A stretch of DNA of 63,950 bases, counting the filler, from Dirinaria sp. TL-2023a (Eukaryota): the NCBI GenBank assembly GCA_051941275.1. It is 4 parts of 4 records of this genome, joined end to end, with 100 filler letters (N's around TTAATTAATTAA, not from the genome) between each part and the next. Parts side by side here need not be neighbours in the genome. Positions count along the whole stretch, not along the records: positions 48,907 to 63,950 come from JAVEBF010000564.1; 3 more parts are not named here. One strand, written 5' to 3'. Of the stretch, positions 7,525 to 63,950 are shown piece after piece. Positions within the stretch are counted from its first letter, which is position 1, and the number at the start of each line of letters is the position of its first letter. The notes beneath the pieces are model-generated. The model searched no databases. It saw only the letters and a program-made list of their open reading frames with translations, and was not told the origin of the DNA. The translations under genes were made by a program, and so were the position numbers.

Positions 7525-7556
<32 letters not shown>
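7525..7556. repeat. poly(T) tract
   Basis: 32 consecutive T; a similar run lies at 10449-10478. Confidence 0.95.
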
Positions 7557-10446: not shown

Positions 10447-10482
<36 letters not shown>

Positions 10483-16221: not shown

Positions 16222-16321
16222 NNNNNNNNNNNNNNNNNNNNNNNNNNNNNNNNNNNNNNNNNNNNTTAATTAATTAANNNNNNNNNNNNNNNNNNNNNNN
16301 NNNNNNNNNNNNNNNNNNNNN
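16222..16321. other. Artificial contig spacer (N + TTAATTAATTAA + N)
   Basis: 100-nt block containing a six-frame stop linker. Confidence 0.98.
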
Positions 16322-22019: not shown

Positions 22020-22600
22020 CTAGTGATAGACCGATGCCGGGTATCCGACCAGACGGGCATTGTTAACCGGCAAGAACTTCGACTCCTTGCAGAATTCATG
22101 AGCTGATTTCGAGAGCTCCTCACCCTCCGAGAATGCAAACTCCTGCTTCAGCAGCAGATCGTAATCGGCTTTGCGATACTCGGGCGCGATGTTGTAGATC
22201 TGGGCCAAGTATTTTTTCTGTTGCGGGGATGTAGTCAGTCAAAAGGAAAATACTGATACGTTTGTAGAGAATCATGAAATGAGAGCGTACCTGAATAATG
22301 GGATAATTGGCCTTGGCCACATTCTTTTGACCGTGTTCTGATGCAAGTTCGCTCTCGCCTTGTCGCTCATGACCCGCTTGTACAACTCCGTGGCTTGAGC
22401 ATACTCACTCTTCTGGGCTTCGTGCATGTAGTGGCTCTTCCGAGACACCACGTTCTCAGCGACAGAGTAAGAGACCTCCGTAGGATCCAGAAGGGACGCG
22501 ACCTTGAAAGAGTTCAGGACATAATGTTTGTTACCGGCGTGGTTGGCGCCGACACGCATCGGCTCTGATGGAATAATTGCGGGCCATGAAAGGGTGCTTG
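22020..22600 (-). pseudogene. 5'-truncated catalase pseudogene (C-terminal region only)
   Basis: HPFMARNYS / PMRVGANH..YVLNSF..SRKSHYMHEAQKSEYAQATELYKRVM..RANLHQNT / NYPIIQ / KYLAQIYNIAPEY resembles the C-terminal part of fungal small-subunit catalases. It has frameshifts, a retained intron (~22220-22290, GTACGC..ACTGAC..CAG), and no heme-binding N-terminal part upstream. Confidence 0.75.
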
Positions 22601-23000
22601 CTCGACATCACGATGAAATTTCTTCGAGAACTTTTTCAAGACAAGATTGCTTGATTCATGCATAAAAAAGTGGCGCCGAGGCTAAACATGCTCTGAACGT
22701 TAATCTTTCATAAAATCTCTTCCCCTTTCTCTATAGCTTCCCCTAGCTGTCGTTTGGAATAAATCAGGTCTTCACGCGAGGTGATAATGGCTTGAGGCTG
22801 CGTCATCTGCTTCTGATCATGGGTAGCTAGGGAGATGGAAATGGGCTGTTAGATTCTAGTTAGTTTTTCATTAAATTACTTCTGTGCCTAAGCATAAAGT
22901 ATATACTTAATTTATGCGCCTACAATATCATGGCTGCCCTCAGCTGTATAGAATTGGATGGCTGCGAGCGGAGGTCGGGGAATTCGCGTCCACCAACTAC

Positions 23001-23480
23001 CCTCGATACTGTTAGCGTGATCCTGGTTGAAAAGATGGGACACTCTACAATAGGTACCTTACTTTACACGCCCAGACTGCCAGGCTTCGCTTGAAGAAAG
23101 CTAGGGTTACGTGTGAGCTAAGCCATTTCCGCGTTTCACTTTGGTCTTCGTTGGGTTGTAAACCTTTCTCGGGTAGGATTCAGGCCTGAAAACACAGTCC
23201 TGGATACTGTTAGCGCGGTCCGAGTTGAAAAGATGGGACACACCACCTACTCCAGCGCACCCCGTAGTCGCTCTGCTCCTATTCTACCTTACCTACCTTA
23301 CAGGCCTAGACTGTCAAGCCTCGCTCGAAGGAATCTAGGGTTGAATTTGCGGGTGAGCTAATCCATTTCCGGGTTTCACTTTGGTCTTCGTTGGATTGTA
23401 AACCTTTGTTGGGTAGGATTTGGACCTGAAAGCACAGTCCCGATGCTGTTAGCGTGGCTGGGGTTGAAAGATTGGAAGGG
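23001..23480. repeat. Tandem array A of a ~125-nt conserved-core repeat (one partial plus two full units; periods 198 and 239 bp)
   Basis: Cores start GAGCTAA at 23115 and 23355; CTGTTAGCG occurs at 23009, 23207 and 23446. Homologous to array B at 57068-57942. Confidence 0.9.
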
Positions 23481-24562
23481 GACGCCACCGCACGTATCTG
23501 AGCCAATGATGTGTATTGTATTGGCTTAAGTTGCTCATGCCGCATCGATAACATCATTTCATGGTTATGCCTTGATCATGCTTTCTACCCAGGTTCAGTC
23601 TTGAGATCTTTGCAGCAATCTCCGCCGGTCCTTCGATTGCGCTCATAGAGAGAGATACGACTCGGACCCGGGTTGTTACTTGAAGCTCTAATAGTCGTCG
23701 CTGTAGTTTGCAGTGGGTGCTCAAAATTGTTAACGCCTAAAATTGCCATTGTATTTCTTCAAGAATACGAATGTGCTTGCTGATAACGGGTAAGAGGTAA
23801 GTTGAAAGTAAGGGAGCAGAGACGCGGATGTGAGCTTGGAGTGCGAGTCAAAAAATGTTATTTGATCGTTCCCATTGAGCTCTTGAATCACTGCAATATC
23901 CTCAAGTATCTCAGATTTGCCAATGTCCCGAGACTCCTACTTCTCTCCCTGCTTCCAGCATGCTAAATTCTTCATCTACCGCTTTGGCCCACGAGCTAAT
24001 CCAGGTTCAGAATCTCATCGCCATTCGAAGCGCACACGGTCTAAAATCACGACTGCAATAAGGTCCTATGTTTTACTAAGCTCTGACATCGGCATACCAG
24101 TTAGCACTGATCCTGTCCTTGCAATAATTAGTTTTCCGGGCCGCCCAAGGATAAGGCTGAGAGATATTCAAATCTGACCGCCTGCACATGGCTATCTCAA
24201 TTTGGACCAGAATGAAGATGAGCTGATTGCGCCAGGTTTTGAACATCTTCTTTCAACTTTGTTCGATGAATGCAAATGATTTTGGCTGAATGGGTTTGCA
24301 GAACCCTCCCGATTCTAGAAAGTACTGCCTGAACAATACACGGAGGCTTCTTGACAGATGCCTTGTCAATAATGATGCAATGGAAGCTTTGGAACTTGAC
24401 TACGGTTTCAATTCCATGTCCGGTATTTGAGTCCTAGGGTCCAAACTTAAGTACAGTGGGTCACACCTTCAATAACTCACCAAGCAGCGAGATAGAGACC
24501 TTTCCGAGAATGTGGGAAGCCCTTTGAAGCTGTGCGTAACAACATCAGCATCCAGACCGTGC

Positions 24563-25765
24563 TCAATCCTCCTCCTCGTCCTCCGAGTCCTCCGAGTCTG
24601 TACCGAACTCCTTTAATATTCTTCTCGCAATCTCGTCGCTTTCCTTATCGCCCAGCTTCAATGTTGTGTCATCATCGTGGATCGCCTCTCCTTCCTTGAT
24701 CATTCTCTGCGTTACCTCACCGACATCTCCAGCCTGACGCGCCAAAGCAAGCAGCACAGACTTGCGAAAATATGGCCCCATTGTCGCAAATGGCTTCTCG
24801 TTAGAGAGTCTGAGGGAATATTCTGCAGACCCTTGAGACTTGTAATGGTTAATGCGGAGTAGTGTTACCACGAAATGATAGTAAAGAAACCGAGCAGCAG
24901 GACGTTCCTCATTCTTCCAGACCAACACTCGTCCTTGGTAGTCTCTGAGCTGTTCGCGTGCATTTCCGACTTGGTTTTTGAGTGCGTCATCATTGGTGAT
25001 TTGGACCTTCCATCGTTTGATTGGCCGTTCTGTCAGGTCCACTGGTAGAAGCACAAAGTGTCCCAGTTCAAACTGCCTCTCCAGTTTTGATTCCATCAAC
25101 AAGCAGTTGTCAGCGGTGTTAAGTCTCAAACCCGCTCCGGGGCCGCAGATATACTCTACAAGCTCTGATCCTAGTGCAAATGGCACTATTTGCCCTGCAG
25201 TAACATTTTCTTTATCATGGTAAGCGTGGGAAATAGCACACCATTGGCAGAGTTTCTTTGACTTATCCTGATCTGTGCCATAGCGAGCGATAGCCTCACC
25301 CTTCATCTGTGTCTGAATCTTGCTTCGCTTGCTATATTGTGTCTGGTCTTTGTACAACTTCAGCAGCGCTGCAGTGAATGCCCCTTCTGTGTCCGAGCCT
25401 AGGGCAGGGAGTTCATTTGCTGCTTCTTCCAGCATTCGATGCTTCTTTCTCTCCTGCCATATCTCTGCTCCCAAGGAGATAAGACGAATATTGGCATCGC
25501 GGTGGGCCTTTCGATGGTCTTCCTCCGTCATCAGTCGTTGTTCGTACTCACATCGGAAGCCTTCCTTTTGATGGCGCTGCGCCTCTGCTTCGTTCTCTAG
25601 CTGCTCTATCATTACCATCTGGTGTTCAATGGGAAGTTTTTCCATCGCGATGTTCAATATATTCCTGTTCAAACGCTCTCGAGTCACCTTAATCTGAAAC
25701 TCTTTCTCATTCCACTGATCAAGAGAAGAATTACGAAGTGGAATAAAGGGATAGCTCGTCGCCAT
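24563..25765 (-). CDS. Fungal HNH-endonuclease-domain protein with N-terminal coiled coil (possibly catalytically altered)
   Basis: Intronless 400-aa ORF. WCAIS...VTAGQIVPF...NTADNCLLMESKLERQFELGHFVLLP fits the HNH_2-type pattern C..S...AAHIVP...N.LL.....FD; RPAARFLYYHF lies downstream. Confidence 0.8.
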   Translation of the reverse strand: MATSYPFIPLRNSSLDQWNEKEFQIKVTRERLNRNILNIAMEKLPIEHQMVMIEQLENEAEAQRHQKEGFRCEYEQRLMTEEDHRKAHRDANIRLISLGAEIWQERKKHRMLEEAANELPALGSDTEGAFTAALLKLYKDQTQYSKRSKIQTQMKGEAIARYGTDQDKSKKLCQWCAISHAYHDKENVTAGQIVPFALGSELVEYICGPGAGLRLNTADNCLLMESKLERQFELGHFVLLPVDLTERPIKRWKVQITNDDALKNQVGNAREQLRDYQGRVLVWKNEERPAARFLYYHFVVTLLRINHYKSQGSAEYSLRLSNEKPFATMGPYFRKSVLLALARQAGDVGEVTQRMIKEGEAIHDDDTTLKLGDKESDEIARRILKEFGTDSEDSEDEEED

Positions 25766-28700
25766 TAGTTGTGAAGATCCTTAAGAAATGGGAGAAGTAG
25801 TGAACCCGATACTGAGAGAGATAAAGGGAGCGTATAAAGTAAGTTGGAATGTTAGCTTTGATGAGGATGGAGTTGAGCCAGAATATATACTTATATTCAT
25901 TAAACTTTAATGAGAGGCTCAGAGTAAGTGGTTTAAATATATCATAATATCCGAGTGGCAGTGTGTACCTGGAGGTATGAGTCAGATGGTGGTGGCAATT
26001 TCCGTCAACCACATGTTGATGGTCATTGTTGGGAAATGAGTGTGGTATGCCTAAATTGCCGTTGGGTAGGCATTGCCCCAGCATATATTTATTCCAATAA
26101 TGCAATGAACTAAGCCCAATTAGGCATAGACTCCGCAAACTCCAATCCTACCTCTACAAAGGATCTCTCACAGTCAATCAATGCAGTGCCTACACCTTCC
26201 CATTGAATAACGACGAGGAAATAGGGGGGTGCGCGGTATTGGAAAAGCCTCGTGGCTCAGAGAACGAAGAAGAACCCTTATAGTCAGATCTACTACTCGT
26301 GAAACCGTCACGGCGTTCCCATCGATCTAGCAAAGATGATGTTCTTCACAAGATATCGTCGTCTTTCAAGAAAGAGGAAACGTCTATCATGCACATTGCG
26401 AGCCTGAATTCTTCAGCCGTGTTGAAAAACATTCCCGACCCTTTCTTGCTTTATGCATTTTCCAGACAACTTCAGGTGACGGGCGCACGATCGCCACTGA
26501 GCTATTTATGCGCGAGTCCATTTCCGTCCGGTGCGTGATATAGAGGTTTGTGGAAACAAAAATGATTCATAAAACAATTATTCGTCCCAGAACATCAAGC
26601 AGGAAAGTATGGGATTGGGAGAAGGATGATCTTATATAAGCGTACGAAAGCTGTATATTGTAAGAAGGAAGTGGATCGAGGAGCGGGATTCATGTCCCAG
26701 ACTTCTGGCCTGTTCAGTGTCTATTAGGATATGGAGTCATCTATCGGATAGAAGAGTTCGAAGCTATGAATGCTCTTGGCTTGGAGTTGGAGTTATCGGT
26801 GGTATGGCATTTCTCTCTATGTCTAGCCAAGGCGATCATCCTATCCTCCCCTATGCAGGAGAAACTCAAGAATGGAAAGCTTCACCAATGCCACTCTGTT
26901 TTGAGAATTTATACTTCAGGTTATTAGCAATGCTTCATTAAGCGTTGTGGGATCTGATCGATTTTGTCACATTGCGGAGTATTGAAAGAATCTTTGTCCT
27001 CAAACTCGCACTTGTTATTCTCCAATCCCCTTGACTGAGCTCAAAATCACCCTAATATTTTTTGTCAAAGATTTGAAACAAATATGCATCTTTCCTTTTT
27101 CGATTTTGTCCTTATTCTCATTCAATAGATAGTCGTTTGTCTATTTCAAATTTCAACAGAGGATAATTGCCTTCTGATCTCCACTGGCTATTCCCATTAT
27201 CGAATTTACATAGCTCTGTTTTAGGTCGATACAATACATATCCAGAAGCAGTTGTAAAAGCACAAGGTATGCTGATTGATGAAGTAGACTGTTCCATGAT
27301 TGACTATCAGAGGAGAGAATTACAGGTGTTTCTTAACAATCAAGCATGATTCAAACGACTTGAAAGAATAAATGCTCTTCAAGCACACAAACCACCGAGC
27401 CAAGGAAGTTATTTGAATAAAAAAGTATCTTGCCAGTTCATTGTGTGATAATAGGTCAACAGACTAGCACAAAAAAGAACTTTGTTGAGTGTAAGTATGT
27501 ACGTACCCATCTGTGCAGATGTGCCCTCCAGTTCTGATTATTTGGCACTGCACAGTTAGCGCCGAGAACTCAACTACTTCAAAAACAAATCAGGGTCTAA
27601 AGATGCAAGTGGATATATATATCTTCCTCTCCAAATGATCAACATCGAGCACTCAACTGCAAACCTGTGATCAGAGAAAACATCTGCGAGAATATTTCTT
27701 GCTGGCTCATTTCCTGAGAGCCAACCTTCACACAAAGGCCAAATACCAGTGCCCGGGTGTTATCAGAACCAAAGAGCAGCTGTCTTCTTCGCTGGGCTGA
27801 TCAACGCCGAGAAGTCAGAGCCGAGAACCTAGCAAGGACCTGGTATTCACCTTTCTATGTCCTTTCTGCTTCTTGCAAGATTAGCCTTTCACACCCCTTT
27901 CTCATACCCAACAATCACTTCTATCTTGCAACCCGGAATCGCCAAAGTGGCACAGCGGCCTTTGATCAAACTAGGGTCGCCTGGCCTTTTTTCTTGTCTG
28001 CTTCTGCTCTTTGCTCTGGAAGTACGACTCGGTGGTCTCCACATCTCTGTGCTAGGACTAAAAATGGTACTAGGCTCAGTAGCGGATCCACATGGTGCCA
28101 AGTGGCTATCGTCTGGGGTATTGCAACTGATAGCAAAGCAGGTAAGACCATATATCGTCCTTGAGAATTCGAGGCTCACAGATAGCTTGACGCTGGTCAG
28201 AACCAACTTCGTGCTGCTAAACACGACTTCTTACCAAAAATCAGCAGTTCAAGTCCAGACGCTAATGGCTGATATAGATTTACGATTCCTGAGAGTCACA
28301 AGACTTCTGGACCTTCTCCATCGTATCACGAAACTTCTACAGTGCTTCCACCTCCTCAGCATAAGTCGTGGGACAAACGCAGAAAGTGCAGTGGCGAAGC
28401 GGGTTGAGCGTCTAGGAAAGGCGCTCGAGATGTCGTATTCCTTACCCGTATATGATTCCAACTGCGGACTACAAAGAAGTCGAGAGCTTGGGAGGGAGCG
28501 ACTGAAGAGAAAATAATCATGGAAACATATTCTCACCTGGCTGCTAGGAGTTTATTCAAAACAACGCTATTCTGATATAACGAGGATTTACTGAAGCGAA
28601 GCATATCACTCATCCGTGCAGAAGGACAATCGTCTGCCTATACAGCATAAGAACTTTTGGGGATCTCAGGGACGAAGGGTCCTCTTTCACAGAATACCAC

Positions 28701-32519: not shown

Positions 32520-32619
32520 NNNNNNNNNNNNNNNNNNNNNNNNNNNNNNNNNNNNNNNNNNNNTTAATTAATTAANNNNNNNNNNNNNNNNNNNNNNNNN
32601 NNNNNNNNNNNNNNNNNNN
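32520..32619. other. Artificial contig spacer
   Basis: N + TTAATTAATTAA + N, 100 nt. Confidence 0.98.
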
Positions 32620-48806: not shown

Positions 48807-48906
48807 NNNNNNNNNNNNNNNNNNNNNNNNNNNNNNNNNNNNNNNNNNNNTTAATTAATTAANNNNNNNNNNNNNNNNNNNNNNNNNNNNNNNNNNNNNN
48901 NNNNNN
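48807..48906. other. Artificial contig spacer
   Basis: N + TTAATTAATTAA + N, 100 nt. Confidence 0.98.
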
Positions 48907-49756
48907 TCATTATTTCTTGTGTAACCGAGATTTCATTGGTCGGGAACACGCTCGGCGTTCACGGGTCATGCTTCGGGCCTCTGTAGGAGACCAGCCACGC
49001 GCTCAAGTACCTGCAAGCCTGCAGTGTATGCGGGCTTCAATGCGGCCTTCATCGAGCATTTGCCAAAAGCAGAACGTCCTTTGCTAACCTCTTCGCTTGC
49101 AGTTGCAATACCCATCTTTACCATGGGTCCGCTACATTACTCAGTCCGGAGATATAGCTGTGAGGTTACCCGATGTGCAATAGTAATGACTTGGCAGCCC
49201 ACTGCGGCATAGAGAGAATAGAGTGCGCTGGCCTGGCTGCAATGTACAGTAGTGCCATCTGTATGTGGCTAGCTGAACAAAAGCAACTAGAGCGAGCTCT
49301 GCAGGCGCTTGCCACCTTCAGCCATTGCTGCAAGGAACAGACTGAAGAGGTTATCATGGTGTGATAATTGTGCCACAACTGCAACGACACATCCAAAAGC
49401 GACAATATTGGAAAGGACCCCAGGGTCAAGGCTCTTGCCGGCCTCTGTATCGCCCGAGCTCGAGGGGAAACTGGCCGCCTCACCAGTCATTACTCGGAAA
49501 TGAACAGCTGGACATGTTTTGTAGTAGAAATGTATATGTATATGTGCAAATCCTTCCAAAAATACCTGAGAAGATGGGTATCGCCGTTGGGGTTCGGAAA
49601 TCTTATGCCTGACGCCGTTGCATAACCACACACCAACAACTAAAAAGCCATGCTGAGACGCACGCAACAGCAGTCAGAGCTGTCCAAGCTCAGTCAGACC
49701 GCGCGCCACCGGTCGGAGTATGTCAAGCGTATATAAAGCGGATCAACGCTCAGGGG

Positions 49757-50603
49757 TTATGGACCGTAGAAAGGTCCATAGTGTCCCTCTTCAAGCTTGT
49801 CGAGGTGGGCCGCAGTTGAGTATGTAGGGTTAGAAGGATCTAGGTAGATGGTCACAATCATTCCTCGTTCTGGTGTACCTTCAAGAAAGTCAGAATTGTG
49901 CCACCTTCATGTTGAAAGACTCACGGCCAGTGGGCAGCTGATGAGATCTCCAGATTTGAAGACCGATACAGCTAGTCAGAACGTTGGGGAGCTTATTCCG
50001 GGGCGCCGAAAAGGCAGCCAATGCTAGAAGGATAGCTAGATTTCCTATCAGACCAGCTGACCTGGTGTCTGACGGGATTGGATCGTCGTGAGGCCCTGTA
50101 CGCCGATAGTTGTACTCCGAAGGGAGCAATTGCGGCATCCAGTGCGGAGATCCCGGAGCTGCCAGTTTCTTCTCATCCCCAAAAATTTTCACCTTGGAAT
50201 AAGTGCTGCCGGGCGTCCGGCGGACGTGTTCGAAACTAAGTGTATTCCAGCCTGCAGATGCATGTCGCACGTTCTGCAGCCTCACATTGTACTCCACTGC
50301 TAAGAGATGGTCTGTATCATCCTGTTGGCTGAAGATTGTTGCCTCTCGATATTGCTGCGATGGACCTGGCAGGCCTTGGACACTGACCACATTCCCGCCG
50401 GACCACCAAAACCAATGTGTGGTCGTACTGGTGTAGGCGTTCTGGATATCTGGAGGTGCCCAGTATCCTTGGGGATTGTGTGGCGCTCGATTCGGCTGTA
50501 CGGCATAGTTGGGTTGTAGGCCTTCGATCTTGAAGTAAAAAGTCAAGAATTGTGTTGGCAGAGGATTTACTGGTGAGGCAGGCACTCCTTGCCCTCCGGA
50601 CAT
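49757..50603 (-). CDS. Conserved hypothetical protein; 2 exons
   Basis: A 237-codon ORF from ATG 50603. Intron 49879-49924 (GTGAGT..CTGAC..AAG) continues RTPERGMIVTIYLDPSNP...GPFYGP*. Confidence 0.7.
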
Positions 50604-53334
50604 AGCTCCAGAAAAGACCGATGCTCACGTCGTACAAAGAATATCAGCCCGTGGCAAGCGATTCGTTCGGAGCCAGACAAAGGGGCTGCCGGCGGACTGT
50701 GTGCTCCACACCAGATGACTGAACGGCATCTTAAGCTCCTCATTGGAGCAGAGCCGCATTTTCCAGATCCTGAACGTTGTCGACGATGAGGGGTTGTAGT
50801 TCCACGGCTTGTTGGACGAGTGGGAGTGCAGCCGACGAAGACAACAGTGGCCAACCAGCTGTGCAGATGGACGAAGGTTCGCGCTGTGGCGTGGGAATCC
50901 GTATACGGGCAGCGGTCCTAATGCACTTGGAGGTCAGCTGGTCGCATTAAGACCCTATAGATAAGACTGCCATGCACACCGTCGCTATGGGATCTTGCTG
51001 ATTGGATCTTTCAGTCGTCCTTCGCCGTCCTGCAGCATGGACATCCCAGTCGACTGGACCTCTACGTTGCAATTGCTGACCCCACTCAATAGTGCTAAGT
51101 TAGTCTAGCAAACGGTTGGTGCTTAGTACACGGGACTGTGTATGGCCGATCTTCCCACGTTCTAAGCCTAGTAGGTCGCAGCTGTCCGCCGGATGGGGTA
51201 TAGATGTGAGCGTGCAGTGATGCTATGGAGCGTGGCATTGCCGCCGTAAGAGGGTTGAAGCTTTTCGAAAAGAAGAGCAGTGAATGAGACGATATGACCA
51301 AAGTTGTAAGTTGACATAGGTAGGCCAAGGACCTCGGTGCGGCAGCAACGTAAGTAGGGACACGGTGTGTTGTAAAGGCAGTAAAAGTAGTACCCTTTGA
51401 CCGCAGCCCTTGGTCGACATCTTCAACTAATTGAGGCAAAGTCTTTGTAACGCTGTCTGGCTCGGCTGAAGCACTTATAGTATTCAGTCAACCAAAATGG
51501 CCACTGTTATTATCGAGTTTTAGGAAGAGGGGACGCTCCATTAAGTATCCATTCCTGCATTACACATTCGTATCAATGGGCCCCAAAGATCTCGTAGATA
51601 TGCTGGGCTGTTTGCCTAGAGTTGCCTAATTTGCAGAGCCTCCTGTAAGCCAAAGCAAACGAGGTTAATGAACCCTTTGTTCTTGCTCGAAGTACAGGAC
51701 TAGATACGGCACCACCGCAGCAGGGCGTCCAACCCAAATGGATAACTGCATCATGACTGGTCCGGACCTATGAACACCGAGTATGATAGGTCAGACCTCG
51801 TCATACATGCAGCTATGAGCAGTCCCGTGCGGTCATCGCTCCTCAACTGCGAAATTTGCGAACCGAGCACCTCTTCTATCTCGCATATTGCCTCAATTGC
51901 TGCTTGCAACCCGCCTATCATTGTGCCAGCATGGCTTCTTGAGTCTCGTGATTCATGAGCGCACCGGATCATTAGACGAGATGCTGCCATGTTACATGGT
52001 CGGGGAGCGGATACCACGTTGAGTCTCCTGATACGCCCGTCATGCGTGAAGGATTTCATTCTTAACGTACTTGCAGGAGCCGATTCGCTGTTCTGTAACC
52101 GAAGCAACCATCCCACAAGACCTTCTCCAAAACAAGCTGTTGGATTCGGACAGTTAGTAAAGCCTCTTCAGAAGTGCGTCGGATATCTATGGGCTCGGTT
52201 GAAGACCCTCCAATGAACGGAGCATCTATTGAGAGATTCAGATATCATTCCAGGCCAATGCGTGTCCAACTTGTGCCGCTGGCAGAAACCTTGATCCCAG
52301 AGTGGTTTGGTTACAAGCTACATCTATGTAAGCTCTGCGGAATCAGAGCCACGAGACGTAAAGCTATCGGACAACTGAGATCGAGGGGAATTTAGCACTA
52401 CTTGAGCTCGAAAATGTAGGGGCTTCTTGCGGCCTAAGGGTTGAAAAATCAATTTGGTTCGAAGGCCAAGACCAAACCTCGCCGCATTCTTATACACGAA
52501 TGGTCTATGAGCATGCCCGGGTGATACAAGGAAGATTGATAGGAAACGCAAGTTACAGGTAGTCCCCACGCGGCTAAGGTCCCAACATTGACTGTGCCAG
52601 AGTGAGTATATTGAGAGCTAGCATCACCAGCGAAGTCTCTTTGCAGCTTATTCTTCGCTCCTTCGTTGGCTCGAGAACTTCCGAGGATGGCATAGCGTTG
52701 CATTGAAGCCAGAATCTCGGTTTCGACTGCTAGGCATTAATTGCTACCAATCAGGACACCGGACGAATGTCTTTGCTAGTCTATCGATCGCTCTGAAATC
52801 GATAGCGTCAGAGGGAGAATGTCCAGCGCAGCGCTCAGTCCCAAGCTTTAGACCAGTGATCTAGCCTAGCTGACCTGTGGGAGTCAGTGGAGGTTCGGAT
52901 TGAAGGGATGCTGTCGTCGAGTTTGGCTTCGACTAAGGCCCGTGAGGCGCAGCCCACGCGGATCAATGCACGCAACAGCCGCCAAGCAATCGTACAGATC
53001 CTACGGCCTGAAGCTGATGATTGGTGAAGGGCAAAAAGAAGGTGTTGGCTATTATACAGAAGCGTAGACCGAGTAAAGAAATAGGAATGAACGGGCTGTG
53101 CCTTTCTTTCCCTGGTATCTTCCATGAGAGATAGGGGTGTATTTTTGCGCTAGTGGCAATAAATTACGGAAACATTCAGTATTGAATGAACTACAAGGTA
53201 AAGTAAGATCTTATGTTAGGATGATTTTTTCCCACGCTAGAGACGCGTACTTCACTAAGGTATTACATCTATGATGATTGCGTCCTGATAAATAGTACTT
53301 CCAAGTACATTATCCGTGATACCGTTGTGAAACA

Positions 53335-54642
53335 ATGGCTACATCGTACCAAAAGCCGGTGCATTCCATCGTCCTAGATGCAGGACCGATTTTGAAAAAC
53401 GATCCGCCAATATCTACCCTCCTAGCGAAGTCGGAGCAGCTGTTTTCAATTCCGTCAGTAGTGTCTGAAATAAGGGATCTCAATGCTCGCTCGCGGATTG
53501 AGACAACTTTGATCCCTTTTCTTACCATCAGAGACCCCAGCATAAACAGCATCAAATTAGTCACAGAGTTCGCTCGGAAGACTGGTGACTTAGCTGTTCT
53601 CAGCAACACAGATGTAGCAGTTTTAGCTTTGGCATACGAACTCGAATGTGACAGGAATGGCGGAGACTGGAGGCTTAGAAGATCGCCTGGACAGCAGGGC
53701 ATTAATGGTCCGGTACCGCAGAAAATCGAGTCTCAGGTTACCAAGGAGTCCACGGAGGGCAAACAGTTGACATTAGCCGAACATACCCAGCAAGAGCCCG
53801 ACTGCCACAATGACGTAGCATTTGTAGGAAACAGCATTGATGACTCGATATCACGTGACCTACAGAAGTGCAAGATTGCGGAAGAGGGATCCTCTACTGC
53901 AGTACAAACCACCATTATATACAAGGTTCACCAAGAGTCAAATGACGAGTCTACGATAACTACCGGGCAAAGTGTAGAACATACCTCGGAAACAGACAAT
54001 TCGGACTCGGACGGTTGGATCACCCCTTCCAACCTAAAAAAACACCAGTCGAGAGATACAAATGGCAAGTCACTAGCACTGTCAGAGAATAAGATTTTGC
54101 AAGTTGCTACAATAACATCCGATTTTGCCATGCAAAATGTACTCCTTCAAATGGGCCTCAACCTGCTATCAACGTCCATACAGCAGGTCCGCCACATCAA
54201 AACGTACATCTTGCGATGCCATGCTTGCTTTCAAAAGACGAAGGACATGAGTAAGCAGTTCTGCCCTCGCTGTGGTAAACCGACCTTGACCCGAGTGTCC
54301 TGTTCCACAAATTCAAAGGGCGAATTCCAGATGCATTTGAAGAAAAACATGCAATGGAGCCACAGGGGTGATCGCTACAGCATACCCAAGCCAGTATCAG
54401 GCACAGCTAGTGGTAAAGTAGGCAAGGGTAAGAAAGGAGGCAAAGGTGGATGGGGTCAAGAGCTAATCCTTGCCGAAGACCAGAAGGAGTATGTGCGTGC
54501 AATACAAGAAGAGGGCCGGAGCAAGGAAAAGAACTTGATGGACGAAGACTATCTGCCCAGCATCCTGACCGGAGAGCGCTCAAGAGCAGGCGGCCGGCCA
54601 AAAGTCGGTGCTGGCCGAAATGTAAATTCCAAGAAGCGATAG
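53335..54642 (+). CDS. NOB1: 20S pre-rRNA D-site endonuclease Nob1 (PIN domain plus Zn ribbon)
   Basis: IVLDAGP, ARKTGDLAVLSNTDVAVLALAYELE, GWITPSN, TSDFAMQNVLLQMGL, LRCHACF..FCPRCG. Intronless. Confidence 0.97.
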   Translation: MATSYQKPVHSIVLDAGPILKNDPPISTLLAKSEQLFSIPSVVSEIRDLNARSRIETTLIPFLTIRDPSINSIKLVTEFARKTGDLAVLSNTDVAVLALAYELECDRNGGDWRLRRSPGQQGINGPVPQKIESQVTKESTEGKQLTLAEHTQQEPDCHNDVAFVGNSIDDSISRDLQKCKIAEEGSSTAVQTTIIYKVHQESNDESTITTGQSVEHTSETDNSDSDGWITPSNLKKHQSRDTNGKSLALSENKILQVATITSDFAMQNVLLQMGLNLLSTSIQQVRHIKTYILRCHACFQKTKDMSKQFCPRCGKPTLTRVSCSTNSKGEFQMHLKKNMQWSHRGDRYSIPKPVSGTASGKVGKGKKGGKGGWGQELILAEDQKEYVRAIQEEGRSKEKNLMDEDYLPSILTGERSRAGGRPKVGAGRNVNSKKR

Positions 54643-54934
54643 CATGAACTCAGTCGTCCTTTGCCCCTTCCAAGGTATGCGGGTACAGCAATTGCTTTCG
54701 AGACAAATGTGTGTTTAGCTAGTGAAGAATCCTACTCCTGTGCGGGTCGCTAAAGGTCGTGATATAACCCTGATTCTGTGTTGCGATCTTCCGTATAGCT
54801 CTTACGACCGTCCGGCACCGCCTGCAACGTTCCTCTCCAGCACCATGGACCGTTGAAAGAGCTCGTATTCCCAAGCGCCTCGCAAATCAATTCAAATTTC
54901 CTCCAATGCACTCGCTAGATCCCAAACCCAATTC

Positions 54935-55276
54935 TTACAAGCCAAGCACCTTCTCATTCCCTATAATCCGTCAGCATCCCAACTCCTCAGCATCTCGGAC
55001 TCGACGGACTTTGTTGGGTCAAAAGCAAGCCGTATCGCTTCTTCAACGTGACACGATGCCTGTGATTAGATGCTCAGTCAGCCTCAGAGATCATTACTAG
55101 GTAGACAGTCTGATCCGGGAACCCTTGGGGCACACCCTCTCTGGCACATACCTCGAATATTTATCATCAGGGGAGAACCGTGCCGGATGCGCCGACTTCG
55201 TGACCTCGCCGGCCTGGATTTTCTTTAGGGTGTAGATGCGTTTGCCATTGGCATCGAGGGTGTACATGAGATGCAT
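54935..55276 (-). CDS. NOP10: H/ACA snoRNP subunit Nop10; 3 exons (absent from the ORF track)
   Basis: [42 protein letters not shown] / [16 protein letters not shown] / RNEKVLGL*. Introns 55060-55151 (GTATGT..CAG) and 54961-55009 (GTCCGT..GCTGAC..TAG). Confidence 0.95.
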
Positions 55277-56265
55277 CTTGAGGTAAGGGAGCTGTGAGGG
55301 TTACGCTTGTACAACAAGTATGTACTTGATCGCATCAGCTCGAATGCCTGGAGAATGTTTGATTGAACGCCCAAGATCGGGGTAGTCACGTTTGATGTGG
55401 TCAGGGTTAGGGTTGGAAGAATTTGTCCAGTCCGCACTTTTTATGTACTTTACGCCCCCCCCGAACTTTGTTAAGACATAGCTCTTTGGACTACGGAGTC
55501 TATCTGTCTTTGATACCGCATTTTTGACATGGTCAGCGCAATATCATAGGATCTCCGTCATTTCGAAGCTTTTAAGATGCACGGGCTGGAAGTACGAGCA
55601 CCAATCTATATACCAAGCCTAAACAGAAGACATCGAGTGGTATCGGGACAAACTATCATACTTTGAAGCGCCACAGATATATATACCGGATGGAAACACG
55701 TGTGTTCAGGTATTCAAGATATCCGGAAATCTTATGTGCCCGTCTTTACCGACTGGTGTTTCTGCAACATCCCCTGGCCCACAATGAATATAGGTATGTC
55801 AGGTCGCTTACATGCAGTCAGATTGACTAGGGATGTTGTTTTCGTCGAGCCTGGCGAACTCAGAACCCTCTGTGGCGATAACAACGAGAATCAACACGAG
55901 TCATAAAAGTGTCGTGTTCTATATCTATATACCCAAGATCGAGAGTCTGCTCTACCTGTTCTGTGCCTTGTAAAGCGTAGAGCGCAGATCAACAGGACTC
56001 TCTTCTCTCCAGGCTATAATATGCTCTTTATTCCGAGAGCATACTTTTTCTGATTGTTGCTCTAATCTTAGTTTCATTAGCATGTGCAGGGTTCGTACTA
56101 AGTCGATACGACAAGACATGCTTTGCTTAATATTCAGTTATCTATGTGTGACTAAAGCAACGCAGCAGTACGATTACAATGTAGGTCTTTCCTGCATGAA
56201 TGTCCTCTCATCATTTGCTCTATATTATGTCAAGCGCCAACAGTAATACGTAACTATAAGACACG

Positions 56266-58520
56266 CTAACTGATAAATTTACGGAGATTTAAAATAGTTG
56301 GACGACGCGCTATATGCAAAATCCTAGCTGACTGAGCTTCACTTCCAGTGTATAATTCTCTTCGCATCCGGCGGCGGCTTGCAAATGACGAATCATCATG
56401 GGCTCTAATGCAGTATCTCAAGTCGCTTGTGGGGTCAGACTTCATCTGGCTGATGTCGTTTTTCAATCAATTGAATCGGTTCCATTGTATGTAATATCTC
56501 AGTCGTCCGAACGAAGCTCTTTTATAGCTTCCAAGTAGTGGAGTGTGCTCCCGGGCCACAATGTGGGCATTTTACCGTGACTAGAGTTATTCTTGAAAAT
56601 TGATCGGCAGGCTTCTGACCAGACTGTCTTAGGCATATAGCTGCGAACATGCTGTGTGAAATCTTCGACGGCAGCAGTCTTCGGGCAGAAAGAGTGTGTG
56701 TTCTCAGTCTGATAACGGTCGGTAAGCAGGAGGAAATAGTCAGCTTGAGCTTCTAGGGTGGTACAACGCCGCCCATTAATGTGATCTCGTTTCCCTTGGA
56801 ATCTGATGTTTATCAATTGCGATGATTGTAGGGCCATTGCTGACTGTGGAGTTGAGCCCCCAAGAACGTTAGCATTCGGGAACCCAGGTATGCCCATACC
56901 AAGGTATGATCTGGGCTGTCCTGCCCATGCGTGCTGTAAATTTACTTCGTTCGAGCGAATTAACCGGGAATCGAGGTATGAAGGATCTCTCATAGCCGGT
57001 GGCACAAATTATCGCATCGAAAAAGTGCTCTGTGTCATCTTCGGACCTGCGTCCACGTTTTGTGAAAGGGGAAACACAGGGCAGAGCTAACCGCTTTCGA
57101 GCTTCACAAGGTGTTCTGTCGGGTTGTAAACGTCCTTCGGGTAGTTTTTCGAAGTACAACCGTAGTCCTAGTGCTGCTAGCGTCGGTTAAAGTCATAGAG
57201 ATGGGAGGGTACCTTACATATACTTTGCCTGTGATGATTTTCGCGAGAAAAGAAGAGACAAATGAACTAACCGCTTTCAGGCTTCACAGAGTGTTCTGTC
57301 GAATTGTAATCTTCCTTCGAGTAGATTTTCGAGGTAAAGGCCTAGTCCTAGTGCTGCTAGCGCCTGTTAAAGTCATAAAGATGGAGGGTAAGATAAGGTA
57401 GCTCACAAATACGTGGCTCCCTTACCGAGAGAAAACAGGAACGAGCTAACCACTCTCGAGCTTCACAGAGTATTATGTCGGGTTGTAAACGTCCTCTGGG
57501 TAGTTTTTCGAGGGAAAAACCTAGTCCTAGTGCCATTAGCGCTGATTAAATTCATGAAAGTGGGAGGGTAACCTCAGGAGATCAGAAAAGAGAGAAATGA
57601 GCTAACCGCTTCCGAGCTTCACAGAGTATTTTGTCGGGTTGTAAACATGTCTCAGGTAGGTTTTCGAGGGCAAAACGTAGTCCTAGTGCTGTTAGCGCCT
57701 GTTGGAGTCATAATGAGGGATGGTAAAGTAAGGGAGCTTACCTTTCAGATAGGTGGCTCTCTTATCAAGAGAAAGGGGGAAGTAAGCTAACCGCTTCCGA
57801 GCTTCACAAGGTGTTCTGTCGGATTGTAAACGTCCTTCGGGTAGTTTTCCGAGGTGAAAATGCAGTCACAATGCTGTTAGCGCCTTTTAAAGTCATGAAA
57901 ATGGGAGGGTACCTTACCTTACATGCAGTGATGTCCAGATAGAACGCGTAACATCTTCATGAGCGATCTGGACATTGTCTTCAGCCAAGCTCTATCAGAG
58001 AAGGTAAGTGCTAACACTAGCCCTACGAGGTTGGTGCTGGACTACACATGTAGATATCCTGTGTCAGGTGTCACTCTTAGACAGCCTACCCCAGTAGTCC
58101 GAATAAACTGCTCCCCTAAAGGAACCCCAGGCAATTTTTTCTTCATATCGTCTGTCAATTCCATCTTGACTTGTTGCTGTAGTATCGAGTCCCGGAGATA
58201 TACGTCTAAGCCCAGACATACTAAATAGCTATTAAAGAATGCTTCCTTCATTCGAAGCTTCGTGAGCGTCCTCGAATTCTTAGAGTATTTCGCAATCTCT
58301 TTTTAGTGTAAAAAGACTGATCTCCACCAACGGACGGTAGAAGCCACATTGATGATCGGATGAAAATGGTTAAACTTTCAGCGAAAGACTGAATCTGAGA
58401 CAGAATATGGACAGTTGAAGACCTGTATCGGCTATAAGAAGGGGCCATTGAAAGACTTCGCCTGCAAGGAGTCATACCCGTTCCCAATCAGCTACAATTA
58501 CAGATTCACGGTCTTAGAGG
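56266..58520 (-). pseudogene. Flavin-binding (Baeyer-Villiger/FMO-type) monooxygenase pseudogene interrupted by repeat array B
   Basis: Collinear BVMO motifs: LIGNG/SS..IL..IQ..FIRS..W, GVGCLRVTP..GYL, SLAEDNVQIAHEDVTR [insert] FTKRG..DAIICATGY..FIPRFP, W..QPRSYLG..PGFPN, CRS.FKN...LWPGSTLHYLEAI and YNGNRF. Several frameshifts and stops; the N-terminal part is missing. Confidence 0.85.
57068..57942. mobile_element. ~875-bp insertion consisting of tandem array B (5 units of the ~125-nt core; periods 180, 179, 156, 185 bp)
   Basis: Cores start at 57084, 57264, 57443, 57599 and 57784. Removing the block restores monooxygenase codons ...GTT ACG CGT TTC ACA... (VTRFT) on the minus strand. Homologous to array A. 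Confidence 0.8.
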
Positions 58521-60708
58521 CCAGAACCGGAGAGCCACGGACTGTCAAAGTGAATTTCGAAATAATCTCTGAAGTCTTTAGGCTAAGCATAAGGCTGAAA
58601 CATCGGCATCAATCCAAACGACGTGGATCGGGCGCTCATTATGGATTGCTTGACAATGCTCTGAATCCAAATCGACAATCTATCCACGTCTAGCTCAATA
58701 TTTGCAGGATCATAGAACACAGACAATCATAGCATCTCACATTCCAGAGACCCAAAGCGGACCCAGCGTATCGTGGCCAAAAGAGGCTTCTCGAAGTACT
58801 AGTCTGAAAGTATCAAAAGTAAAGGAAGAGAAAAGAGACAAAGAAAAAGGCCAGAAGCTAGGCAAAGGGCGCTTACCTGCAGATGTCAATCTTCACCTCA
58901 TTCTGCGTACCAGAGGATGAGTCCATGGCTGTCATGGCTGTTGGCATGTCAGAGTAGGCAGGAGCTGAGTGCTACAAACGAGGCCAGCATCCACACTACC
59001 TACCTTATATATTTTAAACTTTCTCTGGCGATGCATATATGTAATCTTACCTTACCTTTAACCTTAGATACAGTTGCCTCAAGCGCTACTCCTATTCACC
59101 CCCTTTCTTGTTTCGTCTATTTATTATACTTTCTTCTTAGAGTTAGACTTACAGAGAATAATTTCATGTTCATTCAATAATCTGCTGCTTCTGAGTGTCT
59201 CAGATGCATCAAGTTATGAATGATCATCGACCTGAGAACGATTATGACCATCGAAATTGTTACTCGAAGCAGTCTATGAGATGATTCATACGAAGAACAA
59301 CGTCATAAGTTCTGAGTCAAGACTAGTCGTTCAGGTGACTAGAAATCTAATAGATGGAATTTGCAGAGTCTAGAACAAGGTTCTGTGGACAGTAAGTTGA
59401 AGCATTTGAGTGATATAGGTCGTGATATTAGATGATCCCTCGAACTACTTTTCAGGTAATCCCATCTGTGGCATTGACCGCGTTAGTCAGGGTTTATGAC
59501 ATCGAAACCCGTATTATTTATGGCATAGAATACCAGAATAATTACTACTATAGTCCAAATCGATATTAGATCGATTATTTCGTAAATTGAAGTACTTAGG
59601 AACAGCAGATTATTTGATGATGATGAAAGGTAGTTTGGTGGACTGAGAACAGTTTTATAACCCTAACCCTAACAAGAAAGTAAGCGTCCTTGGATTGAAT
59701 GAAACGTTGCTTTCTTACCCACTAGCACTAGTAACTCCTAAGCACCTCTATGGTGGTATTTGAGCTCTGGCTTACGTAGTGTTGCGACTCAGTTCAATCA
59801 GGTCGGCGAATCCCCTTCAAATCCGGTTCCTCCGTAGTTAGGGGGTGATCAAACATCATCTTCCGCGTACCATTGCGGGGTGTGGATGCAAAACAGTATT
59901 AGCGCCGGAAATGCCACTATAAACCACATCGGCTCACTATTTACTTTATCTTTTGCTGCCTCAAGTGAGTACTCCATGATCTGCATTGCGGCATACGTAC
60001 GAATGTCACTCACGTCAATACCACAGCTTCCTTTTCTCTATGCGAGACCATTCATCGAGGGAGACGCTAAGCGACAAGTCCGATGTACATGGACACAAGG
60101 AGAATGGGGTGGTTGTCGAAACACTCATCCCTGCGCTCAGATTGTGGCCGCTTTATCCGGGGTTTTTCCACATCAGATATTCGCTCTCTCCGATATGAGC
60201 GTTGGTCTCCGGCCGCGCTAACAGAGGGTTCTATAAGTATAAGGTAGGTGGGGAGCTGAAAGCATCAAAGCCGAAAAGAGGCATCCAAGCTAAAAATCAG
60301 GCAGGTGAATGAGGGAAAGTCAAGCTGACAAGCGTCGCAGGACAACCAAGGTCATATGCAATGCTCCACTAAAACAAGGATCCCACACTGGGAGCATCAT
60401 GTTGGAGTGCATTCGTCTCTGATTGATATGTTAGGACCTGGAACCCGTTTATATTCTGTAAGGTAAGCAAAGGATTATCCGTTTATGTCCTATCAATGCA
60501 CAGCTCGACATGAATCCCTCACAACATCAACGATCTACGGTGGCTTTTGTATCGTAGATCATGTGCCTTTAGATTGTATTGCCTTTACCTTGCATTGGAT
60601 GCTGTTTCTTCGACATGGCGCGCTAATTGTTTGACAAAGCATTCTTTTACCCTTATAACGCTTTCGTTTCCCATAGCAGGGGAGGCTTATCTTCTGTCAT
60701 ATTCACGC

Positions 60709-62093
60709 ATGTATTCCTCTCTTTCTACTGCGTTAGTCTCTGCCGTGGTAATCTTTTCAGTCATCTCATCTGTCGCGGTCGGTCTCCGATTTAAAGCGCG
60801 ACTCAGTGCAGCCGTTGGAGTAGCCACCGACGACTTTGTGATACTGACCGCATTGGTATGGCACAGTCTATGCTCTTAGCCTTAGTTTTGGAGAGCTGTT
60901 GGCTGTTGTACTGACATCCAAAGAGCTGATACAGTATGCTGCCGTTGCCATCTCGATCTATGGTGCTGTAGCGGGGGGAGAAGGGGATTCAAAGCGAAAC
61001 CTTGCGGACCATCCATCCGAAGTAGTAAGGAACGCATAAGTATGGATTGAACATCCACTTGGAATCTCCCTGCTAAATGCCCATTAGCTCCTTTTCATCG
61101 AGCCTTTCTTATTTTCTATTTTCTACGACTGTTGCCTTGATTAAGTTATTGACCTTGATTTTGTATATGCGAATTTTTGTTAAGAAGAATTTCCGCTTTG
61201 CATGCTACATTATGATGGCCGTTGTTGCAGAATGTTATGTAGCCGCGATAATAGTAAGTTCGCTGCAAGCTATCTGAGCGAGCTTTGTCTAAGGTATGGG
61301 ATCCAGCCTCAAATCTTCTCGAGTAGGCCGATTTCACGAGCTTGGACCATGCCTGGCTACGGTCGTAGATTCGATTATGCCGCTTATTTACTAGCATTGG
61401 CTGCTATCAATACAGTCATGGACGTTGCCATTGTTTTTATGCCCTTATTCGTAATCAGGGCATTGCAAATGTCCCGAAGTCGCAAAGCTTCCGTGTCTGG
61501 AATCTTCTTGCTAGGTCTATTGTAAGTTTTACTAGGTAATCTCGTGCTTCGTAAAATCACTAACTTCAATGTTCATGTAGCTGCATCATTGCGTCCGCGG
61601 TCCGTCTCCATTATTGTGTAGAATTGAAGGACACGCCAACAAATACAAGTAAGCTTGCTGCGTTCTCCAAGCCAAAGAAAAGATATTTTGCGCTGATGAA
61701 GATCTAGATGTGATTACAGAAGATACGATGTGGTCTTTTATTGAGCTATCAATGTCGATCATAGCTGCTTGTCTCCTAACTCTTGCGCCTCTTTTTAGGG
61801 GTGGGCGCGATGCGTCTTCGCTGATTCGAAGCGTCAAGTCTGTGCTCTCGATTTCGTGCACTCTTTCCTTTTCCAAAAAGAGCAAAAGAGGGACTGCTAG
61901 CAACACTAATCCAGCAGGTCAGGATAATCAAGGTGCAAAGCATGCATGGCTACAAATGAGTTCAAAGCTGGGCCGTAGCGATACCATTGGCTACCAGTGT
62001 GACGTTCAGTTGGACGAAAGCCGGACTGCTGGACAGCAACTGCACGGCATAGTAGTTCAGAAGAGCCTGCAATCTGTATCCGACTCAGTTTGA
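60709..62093 (+). pseudogene. PTH11-like/rhodopsin-domain integral membrane protein gene with disabling lesions
   Basis: VAVGLRFKAR..DD..I, LIKL..L.LY.RIF, D..IV.MP..I..LQMS..RK..V..IFLLG, CIIASAVRL and WS.IE..MSIIAACL across 6 exons. In-frame TAA at 61037-61039 and a 7-bp duplication TATTTTC (61110-61123) that shifts the frame. Confidence 0.8.
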
Positions 62094-63950
62094 TAGTAAT
62101 CAGGGTACTGATGAGGAGATTCTTCCTGTGCTGCTTACAGAAAGTTGGCACCAGATTGTTAACGGTCTTTCTCTTCCCTCTGCATTAAATTTACATGAAA
62201 CCTTCCTTGCTAATTAGGGGAATCCAAGAGGGGAGGCTACACTTACTTTTAATAGGCAATGTCATTCCAAGGATGTATCGAAGACTTGCTTTCTCCACTT
62301 TACATATTTACACAGAACTCTTAAACACCTATACAATATTATAGCTACGCTTTATGATCCAACTGCCTTGATCAATTAACAACTTAATTGGTCTTTGATC
62401 GAATTCGCTTAACTTCGTCTCAGCTCCTCGCTCGAGCTTATGCACTATCGGTCGATGACTAAACGATTGACAGCCTGACGTCCGCCCTGTACTCCCTTGA
62501 TCTTCTGCTTCGCCTCCTTCTTTTGCTGACTAGACGCTGCTCGGCGAGCCGGTCAAGATTCAGCCAATGACGTAGCCTTCGCGATAGCTATAGTTGAGTG
62601 GATGGGCGAGCAGAAGTATGCTTTCGACATGCAATATCGAATGCGATATTCAGGTAATCGAGGAAACCAGGCAATGCACTAAATTCTCTATTTCTCCCTT
62701 AAGATGGCCACTGAACATCCGTTAAATGTATCAGAAAGACCCATGCAATCTCGTTTTGATTATGCGACCATATAGAATGTCACAAGGCCCATCGTACCGA
62801 TGTCAGCTGACTGCATATACCGCAGTCTGACATACATATGCGCACACGAGGTGGGCCTTGACATTTAGATCCATTCTCCTAGCCAAATTAGTAGAGGCTC
62901 CGCGATCTAGAGACGCTCAGCGGAGTAATATTGGACGGTATCGCCCCGTCGGTTGCATCCCCCAATTTATCGCTTCGCCCGAGGCGCTCGCTGTTGCCGG
63001 CCGCAAAGCTTTGCAAGAAAGCTTCTTCCATTGATCCCTTTAGCTTGCGAATACTTGCTTACTCCCCACAAAGGATTCGACACTTCAAATTTTTATAGGA
63101 AGTCGCTGCTTTGAAGCCTTAGATTACTGTTCTAACGTCCCTCCCAATTTGCCGTAGATCGATTTACCCCGTTGCCACCGCGGGTTTACTCTACCCAAAA
63201 AGCGGTAGATAATACCGTTTACGATCTCAACTTCGAACAGAACGTCTATATGGTGAAATATATCTACGGTACGTGGACTCTTCTTTACTATTAAGATGCC
63301 AACCTCCGTTTGATATTGACTTTTTTGCAAGCTTTGGCAGTGACAGAGTTCAGGGACTTTGTGCTCGAAGAACACAAATTGACGGCTCTATTGCAGTTGC
63401 TCTGCCATTTTTTCTCTCTTCATTCGGATCCAATAGGAGAGGAGATGTGAAAAAAGTAATACAGGGTATCTATCCCAGCAACTGTCCTTTCTCTATTTGG
63501 CTATCAGCTCCTTGTCTGTAACACAATCAGCTTACAGCCTCCCCCCCAAAACCCATATGAACCCGTTGTGGGTCCCTTACAAATCCGATACGAGGCACTC
63601 TGTAGTGACATGAATCGTGGAATTGTTTCCTAATTCTATGCTAGGGATCGTATCGATTCCACGATTCTTACCACAGAGACAAGGCAACCAACCCACCTCC
63701 AGCTGTCACCCAAAACTCAGCCTACTCTTCCGCTCCGTATTCGCGTGGCCTCGTTTAAATTCTCCAAAGACTATTAGATCAGTGCATGCTCCTTTCTTTT
63801 ATATAAAACCCCCATCACACTCTCGCACTTTCCTCTCACTACCCAAAAAAAAACCATCTTTTCCTCCTTCTTTCCCTGAACCAAACAAGAATCCACCAAT
63901 TCCCCCCTCATAACCAAAATCCACCACTCATATATCCGACCATGAAACTC

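Follow-up and report, generated by a model that had tools for sequence, protein, structure and literature searches.

Array B is a block of five tandem, satellite-like repeat units that interrupts a flavin monooxygenase gene in a 63,950-base stretch of DNA from Dirinaria sp. TL-2023a (assembly GCA_051941275.1), here called the window. Its best reading is a dispersed satellite-like array of a known kind, caught with clean junctions inside a dead gene. The five units appear to have entered whole, in a single insertion at the DNA level, and a circular multimer is the most likely route; this account is held tentatively, at somewhat under an even chance. The window joins four separate contigs of about 15-16 kb each. 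Array B lies on the fourth (48907-63950) and a related array, array A, on the second, so the two are on different contigs; distances that span the linkers between contigs are meaningless, since the linkers join separate contigs. Coordinates refer to the window and are collected in Table 1.

The host gene is read on the minus strand. Its frame runs as ...SLAEDNVQIAHEDVTR (ending HEDVTR) to position 57944 and resumes as FTKRGRRSEDDTEHFFDAIICATGY (FTKRG...DAIICATGY) from position 57066, and translation agrees with the original prediction, which had described this interruption as a clean insertion between two codons. Both host pieces were aligned to 120 homologues, of which 104 were used and 16 dropped (shorter than 480 aa or with an alignment score below 40). 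The residues aligned to the last Arg before the block and the first Phe after it are adjacent in 86 of these 104, and the join is gapless there, at the codon boundary where orthologues might have carried an intron or extra coding sequence. In the remaining 18 homologues the 16-residue upstream piece aligned poorly, and the offsets were -15 (three), +1 (three), -1 (two) and ten further values that occurred once each. The insertion lies exactly between the Arg codon and the Phe codon, with the number of host codons unchanged and no host base removed. The uninterrupted site would have read ...GTGAAACGCGT.... The gapless join, the lack of a GT..AG boundary and the related array on another contig together support arrival of the array, or of a founder unit, by insertion; the block is neither an intron nor extra coding sequence.

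The flanks carry 3 + 2 A, and an in-frame empty site needs three. The insert can be placed equivalently at 57066-57942, 57067-57943 or 57068-57944, or described as 875 bp with an AA duplication. The last description, that of the original prediction, holds as one of the equivalent placements, but an AA duplication cannot be told from microhomology in the A-run. A 2-bp repeat at a single junction pair has a chance of about 1 in 16 and is therefore no evidence alone. In the order given, the three placements end in AA..ATAG, AG..TAGA and GG..AGAA on the plus strand, and in CT..CCTT, TC..CCCT and TT..CCCC on the minus strand. The minus-strand flanks of the insert are ...gcgTT and TTTcac..., that is, a T-run with at least two T per side. 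Across the right junction a 10-nt arm at the end of the block is the perfect complement of a stretch of the flank (inverted pair I10), with 25 nt between the arms; the chance of such a pair is about 0.01 by a rough, post-hoc estimate, and the match is possibly templated repair filler or chance.

The unit of array B is about 175 bp long (range 156-185) and consists of a core of about 128 nt and a spacer of 27-58 nt. The internal spacers measure, in order, 52, 51, 27 and 58 nt by alignment. Tandem Repeats Finder (TRF) reported the array twice, at 57084-57572 (period 180, 2.7 copies, score 503) and at 57253-57911 (period 335, 1.9 copies, score 793). A 128-nt core profile was built from seven cores (five of array B, two of array A) and searched against all 63,950 bases. 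In array B it matched all five copies in full (E 3e-38 to 1e-35), and in array A two full copies and one partial copy; elsewhere in the window it gave one weak match only (E 0.08), and no solo unit was found. Cores share 75-84% identity within array B and 58-66% across the two arrays; A1 and A2 are 82% identical. Within array B the highest value (84%) belongs to B1 and B5, which stand at opposite ends of the array and have similar spacers too, while the B2-B3 and B4-B5 spacers are the most alike, being near-copies (alignment score 53).

The ends of the block are two halves of one spacer. The head aligns with the purine tracts that precede cores B2-B5, and the tail with the stretch that follows every core. 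Tail, A-run and head together make 50 nt, which falls inside the range of the internal spacers, and they are colinear with the 52-nt B1-B2 spacer at a score of 33 (shuffles: mean 9.5, standard deviation 6.4, maximum 35); the other internal spacers score only 17, 13 and 18 against the B1-B2 spacer. Array B is thus a circular permutation of five whole units and has no termini of its own. The left junction reads GTGAAA/GGGG (the slash marks the boundary) and the B4-B5 spacer GAGAAA/GGGGG, a match by which up to 4 nt (GAAA) at this junction could belong to the flank as well as to the repeat.

We infer a circular intermediate, a repair pathway and a succession of events as follows. Recombination between units would first have released a circular multimer from a different array of the family. 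End joining with 1-4 nt of microhomology would then have placed this circle, or a linear copy, in a break in the gene, and the apparent AA target duplication would be that joining microhomology. After the insertion, array and host gene would have decayed neutrally. This route is favoured over amplification in place because the block lacks ends of its own, and also because B1 and B5, with their similar spacers, would adjoin in two arrangements only, a circle or a longer source array. Reintegrated satellite circles are described by Sproul et al. 2020 (PMC7403614) as having first and last truncated monomers that sum to one monomer, and satellite insertion junctions there show 4-7 bp of microhomology. 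Array B probably came in either by such reintegration of a circle or through capture during the repair of a break. A randomly captured linear fragment is estimated to contain a whole number of units in about 4% of cases (about 7 out of 175 phases).

Several points weigh against the circular route. The evidence comes from one junction pair and two loci, and the ends of array A are eroded. The spacer score of 33 was reached or exceeded by one of 500 shuffles. After a crossover in GAAA three A should remain on both sides; the right side has only two, so the simple circle model needs a one-base slip or another joining register. Helentron-type elements, too, insert into T-runs that leave at least two T per side (PMC4067079). 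Finally, the same whole-unit permutation is expected if a single unit inserted and was amplified in place afterwards.

That last scheme is the strongest rival. It takes the unit of about 175 bp as a small non-autonomous element, similar to a short interspersed element (SINE) or a miniature inverted-repeat transposable element (MITE), that inserted in a TTT/AAA run with a 2-bp duplication and was amplified to five in place by unequal exchange or slippage. It is possible, though on balance unlikely. Array B starts and stops at the same unit phase, as this scheme predicts; identity is higher within the array than between the arrays, and the 335-bp TRF period together with the alike B2-B3 and B4-B5 spacers suggests local duplication of a dimer. 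Against it, there are no terminal inverted repeats, no tRNA-like part and no RNA polymerase III (Pol III) box conserved in all units, and the window holds no solo unit. The phases at which array A, itself eroded, begins and ends are different, and the two most similar cores of array B lie at its opposite ends.

The structural hallmarks of mobile elements were looked for in the block and its surroundings. The search for inverted repeats covered 56900-58100 (seed 7, minimum length 10 nt) and returned 11 pairs, none of which (0/11) links the two insert ends as terminal or subterminal inverted repeats; an inverted similarity of the left flank to the unit (14/17, pairs I1-I3) was judged to be chance. 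No MITE or other cut-and-paste transposon was accepted: terminal inverted repeats are absent and the duplication, of 0-2 bp, is ambiguous. A canonical Helitron, which inserts between A and T, was rejected as well, as no placement gives 5'TC/3'CTRR on either strand. A tRNA-derived SINE was set aside with no tRNA gene found in the window by ARAGORN and with Pol III box-like strings (A and B, matched to the generally known consensus) that are not conserved across units. No long terminal repeat (LTR), primer-binding site or poly(A) is present in the array B block.

The original prediction had also listed the absence of an open reading frame (ORF), and on this point it needs amending. One plus-strand frame (57066-57942) is free of stops in all five B cores and gives a 111-aa ORF, and the two A cores are likewise stop-free in this frame after compensating +1/-1 indels. 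Several frames are open on both strands, however, and the open frame is therefore taken as stop-poor sequence, not as coding. The variable sites fall 20/17/17 by codon position, no Pfam family was found in four array ORFs, and for the 111-aa ORF 11 word-sharing protein candidates yielded no match at E up to 10. A coding plus-strand frame was accordingly rejected, and the absence of poly(A), LTRs and terminal inverted repeats stands as first described.

A Helentron-type mechanism had been put forward in the original prediction. Under this reading, which is quite improbable, a Rep/helicase from another locus would have moved a non-autonomous element (HINE/DINE-1-like) with array B as its central repeat. 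On the gene strand the T-run has two T on one side and three on the other, which fits HINE flanks; HINEs have at least two T at each end, in variable number (PMC4067079). HINEs can also have satellite-like central repeats of 140-180 bp (PMC7492417). The same two sources give Helentron/DINE-1-type elements subterminal inverted repeats of 12-15 bp. These repeats lie 2-4 nt inside the 5' end and 38-60 bp inside the 3' end, and such elements have a palindrome of 5-10 bp located 8-35 bp from the 3' end. No such inverted repeats link the ends of array B, and near its 3' end there is only a 4-bp stem (ACAT/ATGT) or the palindrome GGTACC, both compatible with chance. HINEs also carry non-repeat left and right modules around the central repeats (PMC7492417), whereas here the head and tail are spacer halves and non-repeat flanks are lacking. 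No Rep/helicase was detected among the 14 larger ORFs of the fourth contig in a Pfam scan. The Helentron/DINE-1 proposal is therefore not upheld.

A different idea concerns the origin of the unit and not the route of insertion. On the minus strand, which is the strand of the host gene, the array units carry a donor (GTAAGG or GTAAGC) followed by a branch motif GCGCTAAC and an acceptor YAG. A strict intron pattern has 15 matches in the window on both strands, four of which, at three places, lie on the minus strand of the arrays. The unit may, by these signals, have begun as an exon-intron cassette. In its fuller form, a decayed exon-plus-intron cassette of a repeat-protein gene, this proposal is about as improbable as the Helentron-type one. 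The frame directly downstream of the intron-like segments encodes a peptide that is 50% identical between the two arrays (the other frames give 27% and 36%), and the A-versus-B differences in it number 70/92/140 on codon positions 1/2/3 over ten non-independent pairs. Against this, the signal amounts effectively to about 7, 9 and 14 of 26 sites, with a hand-estimated p of about 0.05 before correction for three frames. Inside array B the differences spread evenly over the three positions (49/50/54), and stops interrupt B2 and B3. In all units a stop closes the frame, and the exon lengths that follow from it are not multiples of three. A profile of the minus-frame peptide searched against 1.84 billion proteins gave one borderline match (E 3.5e-4), a 177-aa repeat ORF that shares a 9-residue motif only and was not taken as homology. 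The spacer was also tried as an intron on the plus strand; the strict pattern fits only one of the four spacers and array A is without a donor, so that this reading was given up.

More speculatively, the family might spread as circular whole-unit multimers that integrate at short microhomologies in A/T-runs, with no terminal structure, and the unit might be a decayed exon-intron cassette with splice-like signals on the strand of the host gene. Taken together this is improbable. If it were true, the splice-like signals could let new insertions be partly removed from host transcripts.

An RNA-mediated origin ranks slightly below the Helentron-type and cassette readings. A multimeric transcript, either retrozyme-like or an array transcript ending in an AGAAA tract, would have been reverse-transcribed at a nick in the TTT run. 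The insert end ...AGAA adjoins the target A-run, every spacer ends purine-rich or A-rich, and the target is T-rich on the other strand. The duplication is however 0-2 bp, against the 7-20 bp usual for target-primed reverse transcription, and the retrotransposon hallmarks named above are absent. The retrozyme mechanism of the original prediction is not supported by structure either. Retrozymes need hammerhead ribozyme motifs in their direct-repeat ends. Rfam gave no matches in the whole window at the gathering score, and in 56900-58100 at E up to 10 only two unrelated matches (18.8 and 17.2 bits, with cut-offs of 60 and 56.8), with no hammerhead or other ribozyme. No conserved fold was found for the seven units by RNAalifold (-7.82 kcal/mol on the plus strand and -4.99 kcal/mol on the minus strand; compensated pairs 1/24 and 1/15). 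That the block is an old monooxygenase intron swollen by a tandem repeat is the least probable reading of all: the position is in phase 0 and minus-strand GTAAGG motifs lie 21-26 nt and TTAG 20 nt from the ends, but no placement gives GT..AG, GC..AG or AT..AC, use of the nearest suitable sites would bring in a further 41 or 46 nt and disrupt the frame, the ordinary intron of this gene measures 56 nt, and the repeat sequence of head and tail reaches the codons on both sides.

The host had been named a monooxygenase gene, and its family was recovered (StcW-type), but the gene is a pseudogene. The best homologues of its C-terminal piece are 47% identical. Its frame has at least three in-frame stops (e.g., SDD*DITYNG, NRFN*LKN and LCLA*RLQ, seen by tblastn) and a frameshift near 56950, after ...RFPV. 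Homologue residues 38-195, about 157 codons of the N-terminal half, have shrunk to about 130 nt. The exon join across the ordinary host intron is gapless relative to homologue P0010. Near 56800-56870 there is a possible extra stretch of 21 codons or an unrecognised intron.

The ends of array A are eroded, and its phase of start and stop differs from that of array B. Past these ends, homology to the unit is at shuffle level (27 vs 24.7 ± 4.4, and 19 vs 22.2 ± 3.8). The original prediction had looked to other copies for consistent termini; array A was the only other copy found, with the ends and phase just described. A catalase-related relic (PF06628, E 4e-5, under the curated cut-off) lies at 22272-22607 on the minus strand, about 400 bp from array A. 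Array A as the interruption of a second gene was considered and rejected, with no catalase piece on either side among 12 further ORFs scanned. A strict core pattern had no matches in metagenome contigs. A looser pattern had one match at each of 16 metagenome loci, which are otherwise unlike the unit (best blastn E 0.12) and were taken as chance.

The units of array B are 16-25% diverged, so the insertion is old. Relative to the array B majority, the changes comprise 21 G>A, 6 C>T, 13 A>G and 11 T>C, and a G precedes 6 of the 21 G>A. No repeat-directed mutation bias (C-to-T) is apparent in array B, where direction taken from a five-copy majority is a weak guide. The best reading of the repeat family is that it is dispersed, old, non-coding and satellite-like; dispersed satellite-like arrays have head-to-tail monomers of roughly 140-240 bp at more than one locus, and both arrays agree with this. 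Of the suggestion that the array probably moves, one insertion, probably by a repair-type route, and a related array on another contig can be kept, but movement as a transposon finds no support, as transposon ends are absent.

On the fourth contig, NOB1 and pieces of a gene with a Fung_rhodopsin domain look intact. The closest named relatives of NOB1 are those of Heterodermia speciosa (67%) and Physcia stellaris (65%), and the top database match is 81% identical; these relatives agree with a host organism that is a lichen-forming ascomycete (Lecanoromycetes). A 405-aa open frame on the minus strand at 24563-25780 has an acidic tail and a weak HNH_2 endonuclease match (E 0.006, under the cut-off). 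The first contig holds two long T homopolymers, at 7525-7556 (32 T) and 10449-10478 (30 T).

Table 1. Positions of the features described in the text, numbered along the window.
Feature	Position	Strand	Remarks
Array B, inserted block	57067..57943	+	877 bp, five tandem head-to-tail units
Head, 3' spacer half at the left block end	57068..57083	+	16 nt; alignment to pre-core purine tracts of B2-B5
Core B1 (about 128 nt)	57084..57211	+	nhmmer E 3.2e-38; alignment
Core B2	57264..57391	+	nhmmer E 1.1e-35
Core B3, followed by the shortest spacer (27 nt)	57443..57571	+	nhmmer E 1.2e-35
Core B4	57599..57725	+	nhmmer E 3.7e-37
Core B5	57784..57911	+	nhmmer E 1.3e-37
Tail, 5' spacer half at the right block end	57912..57942	+	31 nt; alignment to the stretch after every core
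10-nt arm of inverted pair I10	57931..57940		Perfect complement of flank 57966-57975; pair spans the right junction
Arg codon, last before the insert in the host frame	57944..57946	-	
Phe codon, first after the insert in the host frame	57064..57066	-	
Host, dead StcW-type flavin monooxygenase (BVMO/FMO) gene	56290..58646	-	tblastn with homologues P0002 and P0010
Ordinary host intron	57992..58047	-	56 nt, GT..AG; between ...GYLH and SLAEDNV
Intron-like segments in the arrays	57683-57741, 23200-23301, 22997-23062	-	Strict intron pattern
Array A	22982..23495	+	Period about 240 bp; second contig
Array A, partial core	23003-23040	+	
Array A, full cores	23115-23241, 23355-23481	+	
NOB1	53335-54639	+	Looks intact; domains PIN_6 and Zn_ribbon_NOB1
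Gene with Fung_rhodopsin domain, pieces	61184-62093	+	Looks intact
Linkers N44-TTAATTAATTAA-N44	16222-16321, 32520-32619, 48807-48906		Contig joins

Clean entry of a satellite-type array into unique sequence, at base level and with an empty site that can be deduced, is uncommon, and a literature search returned no comparable case from a lichen fungus among the matches listed. With its exact junction pair the locus can serve to study the spread of short tandem arrays in the absence of a transposase, and the 128-nt core profile can be used to find the family across the full genome. Taken alone it is a modest addition, because it sits in a dead gene, the family was seen at two loci only and the pattern is in line with known ideas.

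Among known systems, intron-carrying tandem repeats in fungal genes resemble the array units in pairing an intron-like segment with a short open frame on the gene strand. Array B differs from them in being foreign to its host gene and in having frames that carry stops, and its splicing is predicted only. With DINE-1/HINE elements (PMC4067079) and the Cg_HINE of the Pacific oyster (PMC7492417), array B shares tandem units of about 175 bp, a T-run with at least two T per side and no clear target duplication. Unlike HINEs as portrayed in both sources, it has no subterminal inverted repeats, flanking modules, microsatellite module or convincing 3' palindrome, and no Rep/helicase partner was seen in the window.

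A further comparison is with templated or captured insertions at repaired breaks, whether by end joining or by fork stalling and template switching/microhomology-mediated break-induced replication (FoSTeS/MMBIR; discussed in PMC7403614). They are like array B in being one-off events without element ends, with 1-4 nt of microhomology and possibly, here, a 10-nt inverted copy of the flank. Array B differs from break capture in that no host base was lost and the number of units is whole, which random capture would seldom give. The Rsp-like and 1.688 satellites of the Drosophila simulans clade (PMC7403614) differ from array B, which is fungal, is seen with its family at two loci, lies in unique coding sequence and not in another satellite, and is 16-25% diverged. 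Like array B, they consist of head-to-tail, non-coding monomers of satellite size in short dispersed arrays, with a few bases of junction microhomology, truncated end monomers that sum to one, local expansion and higher-order units.

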